This document shows positions 32,047 through 36,972 of a DNA stretch of 64,000 bases, piece by piece. The notes beneath the pieces are model-generated. The model had not been told where the DNA came from. It saw only the letters and a list, made by a program, of their open reading frames with translations, and searched no databases. The stretch comes from an uncultured Candidatus Saccharibacteria bacterium (GTDB taxonomy: Bacteria; Patescibacteriota; Saccharimonadia; Saccharimonadales; JACDBH01): contig CAZBAF010000004.1 of assembly GCA_964490245.1 (NCBI GenBank), forward strand, positions 16,072-80,071. Direction: 5' to 3'. The position numbers and the translations under genes are program-made. The stretch's first letter is position 1. Each line of letters starts with the position of its first letter.

Positions 32047-32136
32047 GAAATATGAAATAAGAAATAAGAAAAATGGGAAAGACATTGGGCTACTGACTGC
32101 AGCTACCCATATTTCCTATTCCCTATTGCATATTTC
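32047..32136. repeat. Heptamer-based imperfect inverted repeat (empty IVS-like hairpin) between atpH and atpA
   Basis: The arms GAAATATGAAATAAGAAATAAGAAAAATGGG and CCCATATTTCCTATTCCCTATTGCATATTTC are complementary at 26 of 31 positions, with a 28-nt loop. Confidence 0.7.
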
Positions 32137-32157
32137 TGCGACTGAAAGGAGCAACTG

Positions 32158-33714
32158 ATGGCGATAAAGGATGATATTTCGATTGCGGACTTGTCAGCGG
32201 ATATCCGGGCTGCGATTGCCGAGCTGAAAAAGCGTCCCGAAATAGAAGAAACAGGCATCGTTACCCGTGTCGGTGACGGCGTGGTCTGGATTTATGGGCT
32301 GACAAGTGTTGGCTATAACGAAATGGTCGAAGTCGAAGCCGCCGACGGCGGTACTATGACAGCTTTTGCCTTTAACCTGGGCAGCGAAGAGATCGGTGCG
32401 GTGCTGCTGGGTGAGGATACGCATGTCAAAGCCGGCGCTAAAGCACATCGTACCGGCAAAGTTGTCGAGGTGCCTGTTGGGCCGGAGCTGATCGGCCGCG
32501 TGGTTGACCCTATGGGCCGTCCGCTGGACGGTAAAGGCGCCATCAAAGCCAAGCAGACCAGCCCGACCGAAAAAATTGCCCCAGGCGTACTGGCGCGCAA
32601 ATCTGTCCACGAACCAATGATGACTGGTATTATCGCAATCGATGCAATGGTGCCGATTGGCCGCGGTCAGCGCGAGCTGATTATCGGCGACCGCCAGACT
32701 GGTAAGACTGCCGTGGCGCTTGACACCATGATCAACCAGCACCGCCAAAACACCGGGGTCATTAACATCTATGTCGCCATTGGTCAGAAGATGAGTAAAA
32801 TCGCCCGCCTGGTGGAGCGCCTGAAGCGCGAGGGTGTCATGGAGCAGACGATTGTGGTGGCAACCAGTGCTGCCGACCCTGCACCGCTGCAGTATCTGGC
32901 CCCGTACGCCGGTGCTGCGATGGGCGAATATTTCCGCGACAACGCCCAGCATGCTCTGATTATTTTTGACGACCTGACCAAGCACGCAGCTGCGTACCGC
33001 CAGATGTCGCTGCTATTACGCCGCCCGCCAGGACGCGAAGCGTACCCCGGTGACGTGTTCTACCTGCACAGCCGCCTGCTTGAGCGTGCCGCCAAGCTCA
33101 GTGACGAGCTGGGGGCTGGATCGCTCACTGCCCTGCCGATTATCGAGACGCAGGCCGGTGACATCAGCGCCTATATCCCGACCAACGTGATTTCTATCAC
33201 GGACGGTCAGATTTTCATGGAAACCAACCTGTTCTATCAGGGTATCCGCCCGGCTGTATCGGTCGGTTTGTCGGTGAGCCGTGTAGGCGGTAACGCCCAG
33301 ACTAAAGCTGTTAAGTCCGTTGCCAAGTCTTTGCGCGTTGATCTGGCACAGTTCCGCGAACTGGCCAGCTTTAGCCAATTCTCGACCGATCTTGACGCTG
33401 ACACCAAGCAGCGCATTGAACGCGGACAGCGTCTGACCGAACTGCTCAAGCAACCGCAATATACCCCGTACAGCACCTGGCAGATGTACGTCATGCTGCT
33501 GGCAGCAACTGAGGGGGCATTTGACGAGGTCGAGGTGCCAAAGATTAAAAAGGCCGAGGCCGCTCTGCTGCGTGAATTCAAGGCTAAACACGGTAAGCTG
33601 CTGGAGAAAATCGACAGCGGTGCCGAAGCCGAGGATAAAGAGAAAGAAGAAATCCTCAAGCTTGCCCAACATGTTGCCGAAAGCTATAAGCCAGTCGAGA
33701 AAGAAGCAAAATAA
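32158..33714 (+). CDS. atpA: F0F1 ATP synthase subunit alpha
   Basis: 518 aa with the Walker A motif GDRQTGKT and the full alpha signature. Confidence 0.95.
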
Positions 33715-33717
33715 GAC

Positions 33718-33794
33718 ATGAAATATGAAATAGGAAAAATGAAAAACGGGATCGCGATAAAAGCCCATATTCCATATTTCATATTTCATATTCC
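33718..33794. repeat. Heptamer-based imperfect inverted repeat (empty IVS-like hairpin) between atpA and atpG
   Basis: The arms ATGAAATATGAAATAGGAAAAATGAAAAACGGG and CCCATATTCCATATTTCATATTTCATATTCC are complementary at about 24 of 31 positions. Confidence 0.65.
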
Positions 33795-33811
33795 TGCAAG
33801 CGGGGCTTGTC

Positions 33812-34681: not shown

Positions 34682-34881
34682 GATCTTTTGATCAGCCGCC
34701 GTTGTTTGATGGGTTTGAGCCGGCTGTGTCTGATTTGACAGCGAGCACATCCACCCCCCAAGAGCTTCTGGAGGTTTATGACGCACTGCTTGCAGCAGGC
34801 GATCATAAAGGATTGGACAGGCTCATAGAGCAGTATCCGCTTGAACTTGATGAGGTTTTTTATGAGGAAGTGCGCAGATGA
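34678..34881 (+). CDS. Small hypothetical protein embedded in the atp operon (paralog 1)
   Basis: 67 aa. Its start overlaps the atpG stop (ATGA). It shares the motif AAGDHKGLDRLIEQYP with the next ORF. Confidence 0.5.
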   Translation: MRSFDQPPLFDGFEPAVSDLTASTSTPQELLEVYDALLAAGDHKGLDRLIEQYPLELDEVFYEEVRR

Positions 34882-35090
34882 CAGGTGAAGCATTTAATCA
34901 GGCAGAGGCAGATCGGCTGTTAGGCGAGCAGGTCGTGCGGGCACAGGCTATCGGCACTATTTTTGACAATGCGATTGCAGTCGGAGATCGGGAGACGATG
35001 GATAGAATACTTAATACATACCCCAGAGGCTACCTGGATTTTATACTGGGAGGATATCCCGACTACCTAAAAGAATTTTTAGAAGATTAA
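34878..35090 (+). CDS. Small hypothetical protein embedded in the atp operon (paralog 2)
   Basis: 70 aa with an ATGA overlap onto the previous ORF. It carries the motif [16 protein letters not shown]. The atpD SD (AGGAGA) follows its stop. Confidence 0.5.
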
Positions 35091-35100
35091 AGGAGAGACA

Positions 35101-36489
35101 ATGGCGACAGCAGAAAAGACGAGAACAAATACAGGCACCATTACCCAGGTGGTGGGTGTGGTGATTGACGCCGAATTTAGCGAGGGCCATTTGCCCGCTA
35201 TTTACAATGCGCTGGAGGTGAAACTGGGTGACCGAACCGAAGTGTTTGAGGTGGCGCAGCATCTGAGCGAATCCTCTGTTAGGGCAATTGCGCTGGGCTC
35301 GACCGATGGGCTGAAGCGCGGTATTGAAATCAAAGATTCCGGCGCACCTATCAGCGTGCCGATTGGCAAAGACACGTTGGGTCGTATGTTTGACGTCAAA
35401 GGGCAGCCAATCGACGGCAAAGAAGATGCGTTTAAGGAACACGCACCGATCCACCGCACGCCACCTGCCTTTACCGAGCAGTCCGGCGCGGTTGAAATTC
35501 TTGAGACTGGTATTAAGGTGATTGACCTGATTGCCCCGATCACAAAGGGCGGTAAGGTTGGTCTGTTCGGCGGTGCGGGCGTCGGCAAGACGGTGCTCAT
35601 CCAGGAGCTTATCAGTAACATTGCCAAGTTCCATAGTGGCTACTCTGTGTTTGCCGGCGTTGGTGAGCGCACGCGTGAGGGTAATGACCTCTACTTTGAA
35701 ATGAAAGATTCCGGCGTGCTCGAAAAGACATCTCTTGTGTTTGGGCAGATGAACGAACCACCCGGGGCGCGTCTGCGCGTGGCGCTAAGCGGTCTGACGA
35801 TTGCCGAAGGTTTTCGTGATCAGGGCTCTGACGTGCTGATGTTTATTGATAACATCTTCCGCTTTACCCAGGCCGGCGCCGAGGTGTCTGCCCTGCTGGG
35901 CCGTTTGCCTTCAGCCGTAGGCTATCAGCCAAATCTGGCAACCGAAATGGGTGCCCTGCAAGAGCGTATTACCTCGACCCGCAAGGGTTCGATCACCAGC
36001 GTGCAGGCGGTGTATGTGCCGGCCGACGACCTGACCGACCCTGCCCCGGCTACAACTTTTACGCACCTTGACTCAACGATCTCACTCAACCGTGCGCTGA
36101 CCGAGCTTGGTCTTTACCCTGCCGTTGACCCGCTCGACAGCAGTTCGACCATCCTTGACCCCGAAATTGTCGGCGAAGAGCACTACAATGTGGCGCGCGA
36201 AGTGCAGCGCATTCTGCAGCGCTATAAAGATCTGCAGGATATTATTGCTATCCTGGGCATGGAAGAACTTTCAGATGAGGACAAGCTGACCGTGGCTCGT
36301 GCGCGCAAGATCCAGCGTTTCCTGACACAGCCGTTCTTTGTGGCCGAGACCTTTGTCGGCAAGCCCGGCAAGTACGTAGCGCTGGCTGACACCATTGCCG
36401 GCTTCCGCGAAATCCTGGACGGCAAGCACGATGACAAGCCCGAATCCGCCTTTTACATGAAGGGCGGCATTGACGAGGTTAAGGAGTAG
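35101..36489 (+). CDS. atpD: F0F1 ATP synthase subunit beta
   Basis: 462 aa with the Walker A motif GGAGVGKT and DELSEED-like MEELSDEDK. Confidence 0.95.
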
Positions 36490-36522
36490 CTCCTAAGACT
36501 GGAGTGAGGAGTGCGGAGAGCT

Positions 36523-36972
36523 GAAATATGAAAAATGAAATAAGGAATATGGGGGATGGGGCCAAAGCCCTCAAGTCGTTCCAGCAGCTGGATGCATGGC
36601 AGGCCAGTCGTAAACTTTTCTTTATTGTTTTTCATATTACAAAAAAATTTCCCAGCGAAGAGCTGTTCGTTTCAGTGTCGCAAATGCGTCGAGCGGCACT
36701 GTCAGTGGCCTCAAACATTGCCGAAGGATTTGGCAGATCTTCCGCCGCTGATAAATTGCATTTTTATGTTATGGCAAGGGGCTCTCTGACAGAACTGCAG
36801 AACCAGATCATATTAACCAAAGACGTCGATCTCATTCGCGAGGCGGATGCGACAGTCGTCCAGTCGCAAGCTGAACTTGCCCATAAGCTTGTTGTTGGAC
36901 TTATTAAAGCTACGGAGAAGAGAAAATAATGCAGCTAATCCCCTATTTCATATTTCATATTTCATACTCCCC
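36523..36972 (+). mobile_element. IVS-like cassette: heptamer inverted repeats enclosing a four-helix-bundle ORF
   Basis: The left arm GAAATATGAAAAATGAAATAAGGAATATGGGGG pairs with the right arm CCCCTATTTCATATTTCATATTTCATACTCCCC over about 28 bp with one bulge. The architecture matches 23S rRNA intervening sequences that carry this ORF family. Confidence 0.45.
36528..36929 (+). CDS. Four-helix-bundle protein (TIGR02436 / 23S rRNA-intervening-sequence protein family, Avd-like)
   Basis: 133 aa (or 126 aa from Met8 at 36549) with F..L.AWQ......FP..E......Q.RRAA.SV.SNIAEG.GR......F...ARGSL.EL. Confidence 0.8.
   Translation: MKNEIRNMGDGAKALKSFQQLDAWQASRKLFFIVFHITKKFPSEELFVSVSQMRRAALSVASNIAEGFGRSSAADKLHFYVMARGSLTELQNQIILTKDVDLIREADATVVQSQAELAHKLVVGLIKATEKRK

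Follow-up and report, generated by a model that had tools for sequence, protein, structure and literature searches.

A 64,000-nt window of a contig from an uncultured Candidatus Saccharibacteria bacterium (GenBank assembly GCA_964490245.1, contig CAZBAF010000004.1, positions 16,072 to 80,071 of the forward strand) carries imperfect inverted repeats, built from 7-nt units, in three gaps of its F1Fo ATP synthase operon: atpH|atpA (H1), atpA|atpG (H2) and atpD|atpC (H3). H3 encloses a gene for a four-helix-bundle (4HB) protein of the S23p type, the protein of 23S rRNA intervening sequences (IVSs). Taken as a whole, the observations are best explained, and in our judgement rather probably so, if the three repeats are copies of one IVS-type cassette that is carried on the host transcript and whose stems would be cut by RNase III.

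Inverted repeats in three gaps of the atp operon

The arms of H1, H2 and H3 were all 31 nt long and consisted of about four tandem 7-nt GAAATAN units, the left arm ending in GGG and its partner opening with CCC. A sequence-only reading of the window had described arms of this kind in these gaps, and all three repeats were found there with these units and ends; only the start given for H2 (33718) was 2 nt early, its arm beginning at 33720. The parts of the three elements are as follows.

32047..32077, + strand: H1 left arm, GAAATAT GAAATAA GAAATAA GAAAAAT GGG
32078..32105, + strand: H1 loop, 28 nt
32106..32136, + strand: H1 right arm, CCC and ATATTTC-type units; 26 Watson-Crick pairs, 3 A·C oppositions and 2 transversion mismatches
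33720..33750, + strand: H2 left arm, GAAATAT GAAATAG GAAAAAT GAAAAAC GGG
33751..33763, + strand: H2 loop, 13 nt, with no recognisable remnant of an open reading frame (ORF)
33764..33794, + strand: H2 right arm; 25 Watson-Crick pairs, 3 A·C oppositions and 3 transversion mismatches
36523..36553, + strand: H3 left arm, GAAATAT GAAAAAT GAAATAA GGAATAT GGG, holding both candidate start codons of the 4HB gene (36528 and 36549)
36528..36929, + strand: 4HB gene (S23p, 23S rRNA IVS protein), 133 aa from the first ATG
36930..36939, + strand: tail after the 4HB stop codon, TGCAGCTAAT, common to H1 and the relative L002
36940..36970, + strand: H3 right arm, which closes the element in the minimum free energy (MFE) and centroid folds

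Counted by position, Watson-Crick pairs made up 26/31 (H1), 25/31 (H2) and 25/31 (H3) of the arm positions, the H3 arms lying 386 nt apart. Because arms of different elements were complementary to each other by up to 88%, H1, H2 and H3 form one family, as had been proposed. The 13-mer GAAATATGAAATA, allowing up to 2 mismatches, matched 21 times in the window against 1.36 matches expected, a count reached by none of 100 shuffles, and 19 of the 21 matches lay within the three atp gaps. On each strand H1 and H2 folded better than shuffled sequence did (z = -2.3 and -3.4 on the + strand, -6.9 and -5.4 on the - strand), and in the 476-nt full element H3 the terminal stem closed in the MFE and centroid structures of either strand. 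Position seven of the unit was variable (GAAATAN, GATTTAN) and spells, together with the next G, TAAG, TAGG or TATG; stop and start codons thus step through the three frames of the left arms, and such triplets often arise by chance in AT-rich 7-mers. The window also contained further heptamer arrays, which were direct.

The 133-aa ORF in H3, which the earlier reading had placed in TIGR02436, scored 96.6 bits against the hidden Markov model of that family, well above its cutoff of 24, over profile positions 2-108 of 109. It was also assigned to PF05635 and matched, by sequence homology over residues 7-125, PDB entry 2gsc (E = 2e-19), which was deposited with five chains. All 26 invariant columns of a 37-sequence alignment were present in the window protein. 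Homologues mostly begin at an MG that matches position 36549, which would give a protein of 126 aa. Between orthologous cassettes the nonsynonymous divergence (dN) was 0.17-0.22 and the synonymous divergence (dS) was saturated, with a dN/dS of 0.07 in the sole measurable pair; the 4HB protein is under strong purifying selection. When the window cassette was compared with that of L002, the arms were 87-90% identical and third codon positions 40% identical, and the outer spacers could not be aligned. The arms are much better conserved than synonymous sites, and arms and protein alike are constrained. The GC content at third codon positions (GC3) of the 4HB gene was 0.47, compared with 0.57-0.66 in the atp genes, and this low value fits a foreign origin. 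Among the matches listed in a scan of a genome collection, 4HB relatives had at most 60% identity, and look-ups of the exact protein, made to find population variants that have or lack the hairpins, yielded sample SRR7082966 alone, or nothing. The named homologues and loci point to a Saccharibacterium, of the Patescibacteria, as the source of the window.

H1 retained traces of the gene. The end of its left arm (ATGGG) together with loop nucleotides 32078-32084 reads ATGGGAAAGACA, a remnant of the first 12 nt of the 4HB ORF that was identical at 10/10 positions to the ORF start of L002 and lay at the homologous position beside the arm. The last 8 nt of the loop, TGCAGCTA (32098-32105), are a remnant of the tail after the stop codon, with a 7/7 match to the tail of L002 and H3. 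Since both the ORF start and the post-stop tail are kept next to the arms, H1 is an internally deleted cassette; since its ORF remnant is closer to L002 than to H3, it was not derived from the present H3 sequence. Comparison of the H2 loop with the ORF gave short ambiguous matches only and no recognisable remnant. H2 can be assigned to the cassette family by the sequence of its arms and presumably also derives from an ORF-bearing cassette. Thus the proposed division into full and empty members holds for H1, with its ORF start and tail, and lacks such a trace in the H2 loop. The designation of the full copy as autonomous was unsupported: it encodes only the 4HB protein, no transposase or reverse transcriptase was found nearby, and no target-site duplication was seen.

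We compared the operon with 80 metagenomic relatives, whose atpG was 44-91% identical to that of the window. In 33 of 34 cases the atpH|atpA gap did not exceed 28 nt; the window alone had a gap of 116 nt. In the closest relative (L097, atpG 91% identical) the atpA|atpG gap was 3 nt, and in L098 (82% identical) it held an unrelated 70-nt spacer. H1 and H2 are therefore lineage-specific insertions, which the nearest relatives available for comparison lack. In their atpD|atpC gap, L002 (atpD 93% identical) and L005-L010 (83-84%) had a 4HB cassette whose arms were made of the same GAAATAN units, and the atpD|atpC 4HB gene was missing from L098 (88%) and from all other metagenome relatives in the set L097-L176 that spanned both genes. 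Cassettes also occupied other gaps of the operon, with other units: atpG|atpD in L150 (GAATTAT) and atpA|atpG in L154 (GAACGAC). On one 713-kb contig, GAAATAN-type cassettes were found at two distant loci, atpD|atpC and yqeY|adk.

Heptamer-flanked 4HB genes in other genomes

The heptamer-flanked design, which the earlier reading had missed outside the atp operon, is the standard packaging of 4HB genes in Patescibacteria and cyanobacteria. We surveyed 96 4HB genes at 85 non-redundant Patescibacteria loci for inverted repeats in their flanks, with a score threshold of >= 30. This score was reached by 76/96 genes (79%), compared with 3/400 random positions of the same geometry (0.75%) and 37/400 pairs of left and right flanks taken from different elements; by sequence, left arms match their own right arm far better than the arms of other cassettes. 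The arms were ~29 nt long, with roughly four units, and the unit differed by cassette (GAAATAN, GATTTAN, GTATTTC, GTGAACA, GCGTAAC, GAGTCAA and others). Tracts with a period of 7 nt numbered 246 in 1.19 Mb, against 12, 6, 2 and 0 for periods 8-11.

The cassettes with inverted flanks were embedded among genes of their own orientation. A co-directional ORF ended within 80 nt upstream of 62/76 cassettes, and one started within 70 nt downstream of 63/76, at a median of ~10 nt. Across the survey loci and the window there were 31 ORF-less heptamer hairpins with short loops, H1 and H2 included, and several of them shared their unit with a nearby 4HB cassette (L064, L066, L072, L073, L089). On cyanobacterial plasmids, 5/6 inspected 4HB copies had inverted flanks of heptamer units and lay inside operons. 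In Picosynechococcus sp. PCC 7003 (plasmid NZ_CP016476.1, 126543-126899; L180), the cassette separates cas10/cmr2 from cmr3 in a type III-B CRISPR operon. A large clustering study scored '23S rRNA IVP' as CRISPR-associated (PMC10910872), and passenger insertions such as L180 could explain this association. A literature search that covered subscription journals thinly turned up no paper on inverted heptamer flanks of 4HB genes outside rRNA, so an earlier description is possible.

Several other features of these loci were observed. Among the 246 tracts of 7-nt period, 154 did not lie beside a 4HB gene (the 85 Patescibacteria loci L002-L096 and the window); heptamer arrays, direct as well as inverted, are general in the intergenic DNA of the candidate phyla radiation and are reminiscent of cyanobacterial STRR repeats. 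In L083 (8032-12431), four 4HB cassettes were packed into ~4.4 kb, three of them with (GTATTTC)n arms whose purine/pyrimidine orientation is opposite to that of most cassettes, and at least three of the four were followed by ORFs of ~160-180 aa with N-termini like type IV pilin leaders (GFTLLE motif). The arms in L026 were unusually long (~100 nt).

Comparison with intervening sequences and other repeats

In the 23S IVS of Coxiella burnetii, a weak Shine-Dalgarno sequence is followed by three GACAGAT heptamers, a degenerate fourth (GACAGAA) and the ATG of the S23p ORF; its ends are inverted repeats that make a 28-bp stem, which RNase III cleaves at the start of the first repeat (PMC4990558). 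Coxiella strains vary in heptamer number, one strain has a 176-bp deletion in the ORF, and the ORF is reported to be decaying and probably untranslated (PMC4990558). The S23p protein is described there as homopentameric (PMC4990558, citing Lin 2006). IVSs of the S23p type have also been reported in Leptospira, Brucella and Xanthomonas.

The resemblance to rRNA IVSs claimed in the earlier reading proved to be precise when set against the Coxiella design, from the Shine-Dalgarno sequence, the heptamers and the ATG of the S23p ORF to the 28-bp stem cut by RNase III (PMC4990558). Like the Coxiella IVS, H3 has a PF05635 ORF in the sense orientation of the host transcript, tandem heptamers directly before the ATG (four GAAATAN units, with the ATG in the last), and a terminal stem of ~28-31 bp closing an element of ~430-450 nt; low GC relative to the host, sporadic distribution and ORF-deleted variants are further shared features. 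However, the heptamer is GAAATAN rather than GACAGAT, and the window ORF, unlike that of Coxiella, is under strong purifying selection. The window elements also lie in intergenic gaps of a protein-coding operon and not in helix 9, 25 or 45 of 23S rRNA, so they lack the location that defines an S23p IVS. Moreover, the ribosome keeps the fragments of a cut rRNA together, whereas cistrons come apart when an mRNA is cut, and RNase III cleavage is proposed here by analogy. H1 and H2 resemble the ORF-less rRNA IVSs of Salmonella, Yersinia and Campylobacter in being sporadic stem-loops of ~75-90 nt without an ORF in a transcribed unit, but they lie in mRNA spacers and come from an ORF-bearing cassette with heptamer arms (H1 demonstrably, H2 presumably).

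Correia/NEMIS and ERIC-type elements are co-transcribed hairpins that are targets of RNase III or RNase E, and they have been proposed or shown to create mRNA processing sites. The atp elements are likewise short, co-transcribed inverted-repeat inserts between operon genes; they differ in their tandem-heptamer arms, in a full form that encodes a 4HB protein and in having no transposase-encoding parent. No target-site duplication was found at the three junctions, and because this and a transposase are both lacking, the elements are not classical miniature inverted-repeat transposable elements. The 4HB protein shares its fold and family (PF05635/PF22296) with Avd of diversity-generating retroelements. 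Unlike Avd genes, it has no template or variable repeats adjacent to it, and within ~3 kb no reverse transcriptase, transposase or recombinase adjoined it, the neighbours being atp genes, Na_H_Exchanger and a MIP channel. Because no reverse transcriptase lies nearby, the protein is not the Avd of such a retroelement. The STRR repeats of heterocystous cyanobacteria and the TAACTGA repeats of Beggiatoaceae are also tandem 7-nt intergenic units, often just before start codons, and cyanobacterial 4HB genes carry such heptamer units as inverted flanks. In contrast, descriptions of the STRR and TAACTGA repeats present them as direct repeats and state no link to 4HB genes, and their sequences and taxa are different.

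Other assignments were rejected. The AT-rich stems have no T-run and no terminator was predicted at the hairpins, which are thus not intrinsic terminators; in the same scan no promoter coincided with a hairpin, and promoter-like sites numbered 11, compared with 8.6 in shuffles. An Rfam search of the window at the gathering threshold yielded two tRNAs only, and a permissive search of 31900-37100 gave only look-alikes of miRNA precursors (22-28 bits against gathering thresholds of 73-86).

Proposed action on the atp transcript and alternatives

In this reading a cassette is a small S23p/PF05635 gene within terminal inverted repeats of ~30 nt, its start codon lying in the last of about four units. 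It would have no promoter or terminator of its own and would ride on read-through transcription of the host operon, as an rRNA IVS does; we infer this dependence because no promoter-like or terminator-like site coincides with the cassettes. In the atp transcript the arms would form stems in which 25-26 of the 31 positions are Watson-Crick pairs. By analogy with the 28-bp heptamer stem of Coxiella, RNase III would cut these stems, and the polycistron would be split at H|A, A|G and D|4HB|C; the earlier reading had proposed that processing or stabilisation at the hairpins would divide the atp mRNA into H|A|G-x-x-D|C. A short Shine-Dalgarno linker follows each right arm, so atpA, atpG and atpC would probably stay translatable after such cuts. 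The most fitting view of the elements is that they are selfish or commensal inserts which the host tolerates, rather than tuned regulators of the atp genes.

The host operon is complete and runs on the + strand in the order atpI, atpB, atpF, atpH, atpA, atpG, two small ORFs, atpD, 4HB gene and atpC. The genes and linkers next to the repeats are as follows.

31637..32041, + strand: atpH (delta), host gene upstream of H1
32137..32157, + strand: linker from H1 to the atpA start codon, with the Shine-Dalgarno sequence AAAGGAG
32158..33714, + strand: atpA (alpha), host gene between H1 and H2
33795..33811, + strand: linker from H2 to the atpG start codon
33812..34681, + strand: atpG (gamma), host gene downstream of H2
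34678-34881 and 34878-35090, + strand: two overlapping small ORFs of 67 and 70 aa in the atpG|atpD gap
35101..36489, + strand: atpD (beta), host gene upstream of H3
36971..36993, + strand: linker from H3 to the atpC start codon, with the Shine-Dalgarno-like GAGAGG
36994..37419, + strand: atpC (epsilon), host gene downstream of H3

The relatives, whose atpH|atpA gap does not exceed 28 nt, lack the H1-atpA linker. In atp operons (the window, L006 4421-4445, L150, L152 and L154), every right arm was followed by a 17-25-nt linker with GGAG, GAGG or AAAGGAG before the host start codon. These linkers were loosely alike among copies (TGC...ACTGAAA-GGAGC), and the cassette may supply its own ribosome-binding site to the downstream host gene; in many cassettes outside Saccharibacteria the host ATG abuts the arm instead (0-10 nt). 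The two small ORFs between atpG and atpD had weak mutual similarity (E = 3e-6) and GC3 values of 0.47 and 0.42; they had no Pfam or NCBIfam match and no homologue in the 80 related atp operons, in which the length of the atpG|atpD gap was between 0 and 1127 nt. Unrelated small ORFs are often found in the atpA|atpG, atpG|atpD and atpD|atpC gaps of Saccharibacteria, one of ~68 aa in L098 (7600-7804) being an example.

Several observations weigh against transcript-borne cassettes cut by RNase III. All three window copies lie within 5 kb, in one operon. None of ~100 cassettes lies in an rRNA gene (short-motif matches were at chance level, and Rfam applied to six loci found one 16S gene, 6 kb from a cassette); for this reason the link to rRNA IVSs is drawn from architecture, protein family and one paper. 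No RNase III gene is present in the 64-kb window, and its signature was found in one fetched locus only, the Saccharibacteria contig L055. The empty stems are weaker on the sense strand (H1 -21.4, H2 -19.3 kcal/mol) than on the antisense strand (-37.0 and -29.3 kcal/mol). Finally, mismatches across the 76 cassettes of the wider family, read on the sense strand, comprised 80 G·U, 76 A·C and 142 transversions, so that wobble pairs are favoured on neither strand; such symmetry is what a constraint at the level of DNA or of protein binding predicts, and not what selection on an RNA stem predicts.

A constraint at the DNA level or from protein recognition would account at least equally well for this symmetry and for the fact that the arms are conserved in their very sequence; we keep such a constraint as the main rival, although we consider it somewhat unlikely. 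The heptamer arrays would then be sites, comparable to iterons or to the terminal repeats of transposons, at which a protein binds and mobilises or maintains the cassette; this protein could be the toroidal pentamer that the cassette encodes or a recombinase acting in trans, and the RNA stem would be a by-product. The 87-90% identity of the arms where synonymous sites are saturated is in keeping with this, as is the sharing of the GAAATAN unit by cassettes whose proteins are just ~48-60% identical (L017, L018, L019, L024). The ~four to five units per arm can be set beside the homopentameric state of the protein (PMC4990558, citing Lin 2006), and heptamer copy number differs among Coxiella strains. 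On the other hand, no transposase, recombinase or reverse transcriptase adjoins the cassette, no target-site duplication was seen, and S23p-type proteins have no known nucleic-acid sequence specificity. Strict co-orientation with the host genes is needed by a transcript-dependent element but not by a DNA transposon, and RNase III cleavage of the Coxiella stem is experimentally established. The antisense strand could instead be the functional one, the stems folding in antisense RNA or in single-stranded minus-strand DNA, where A·C becomes G·U (or G·T). The earlier reading had noted three A·C oppositions in H1, which position-wise pairing bore out, and had taken the strand of action to be unclear. 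H1 and H2 had three A·C each and H3 had two and one G·U, giving 8 A·C : 1 G·U on the sense strand of the window, and relatives with GAAATAN units leaned likewise (A·C:G·U of 3:0 in L005, 2:0 in L018 and 1:0 in L017). Because these transitions give A·C on the sense strand, H1 and H2 fold better as antisense, with the lower energies given above and z = -6.9 and -5.4. The excess is thus real in the window but vanishes across the wider family, where 76:80 indicates that the A·C skew is not a property of the class, and copies that are orthologous do not count as independent samples. The + strand carries the ORF and its two neighbouring genes, the sole promoter-like minus-strand site in H3 lies inside the ORF and does not obviously read into the stems, and promoter-like counts did not exceed those of shuffles. 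We therefore hold an antisense function to be very doubtful; since the G·U and A·C counts give no signal over the family as a whole, the strand of action cannot be assigned.

Selection by the host is also improbable as an explanation. The hairpins would in that case be REP-like regulators of the atp genes that block 3' exonucleases or serve for processing, and so set the differing amounts of the delta, alpha, gamma, beta and epsilon subunits. They do stand between cistrons that are needed in different stoichiometries, they form stable stems with no T-tract and hence are not terminators, and each is followed by a new Shine-Dalgarno linker. However, H1 and H2 are missing from the nearest relatives, where the gaps are 0-28 nt, and this absence makes regulation selected by the host unlikely; the content of the gaps varies widely in Saccharibacteria (0 to 1127 nt), the same type of cassette lies between unrelated genes (yqeY|adk, cas10/cmr2|cmr3, and genes that are pilin-like by their N-terminal sequences), and one copy holds a conserved protein gene that is not known to be connected with ATP synthase. 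In many bacterial genomes no long simple repeat is more common than the heptanucleotide tandem repeat, perhaps because of polymerase slippage (PMC4679880), and the window has other direct heptamer arrays. That slippage during replication of AT-rich spacers gave rise to the atp repeats as simple-sequence tracts, unrelated to each other or to IVSs, is nevertheless scarcely credible. Slippage cannot make matched inverted partners, which reached the score of 30 in 79% of cassettes against 0.75% of random positions, and the three copies share arms, GGG/CCC ends and a tail motif; the ORF remnants kept in H1, as well as the scores of arms with their own partners, already contradict such an origin.

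A second intergenic module of ~200 nt occurs in four copies in the window (10560-10800, 26110-26350, 28790-28990 and 50310-50560), one of them directly upstream of the atp operon. It consists, in this order, of direct arrays of (AGTGATT)n and (AGTAGAT/GGTAGTT)n, a pair of conserved GC hairpins (GGCGGCGTTAGCCGCC and GCGCCCTTTAGGGC) and the likewise conserved stretch CTGCCCTGATT...CAAAA-TACAAT, which resembles a -10 promoter element. The module had no Rfam match at the gathering threshold.

To our knowledge, there is no agreed origin, mobility mechanism or function for bacterial rRNA IVSs and S23p proteins, which have been known for more than 30 years. With the three repeats read as copies of one IVS-type cassette, the same cassette as the rRNA IVS is found between the protein-coding genes of an essential operon, and IVSs would become a subset of a widespread class of protein-conserving cassettes rather than a curiosity of rRNA. 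The presence of '23S rRNA IVP' genes in unrelated operons, for example type III-B CRISPR loci, may be explained by this class. The prediction is that many mRNAs are cut in an RNase III-dependent manner, and Nostoc, Picosynechococcus and cultivated Saccharibacteria are among the tractable hosts in which the system could be tested. A bolder proposal, which we regard as rather unlikely, is that one pan-bacterial IVS class lodges in any heavily transcribed RNA, with mRNA operons as its main habitat and the 23S IVS as no more than a special case that was noticed first. The cassette's own pentamer would read the heptamers, about one unit per subunit, and would, in the manner of its homologue Avd, bring in a polymerase or reverse transcriptase, or have some other action on the stem-loop RNA once it is excised, so that the cassette is copied to new transcribed sites. 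If true, this would provide the mobility mechanism that IVSs have lacked since 1990 and a function for a very large orphan protein family.

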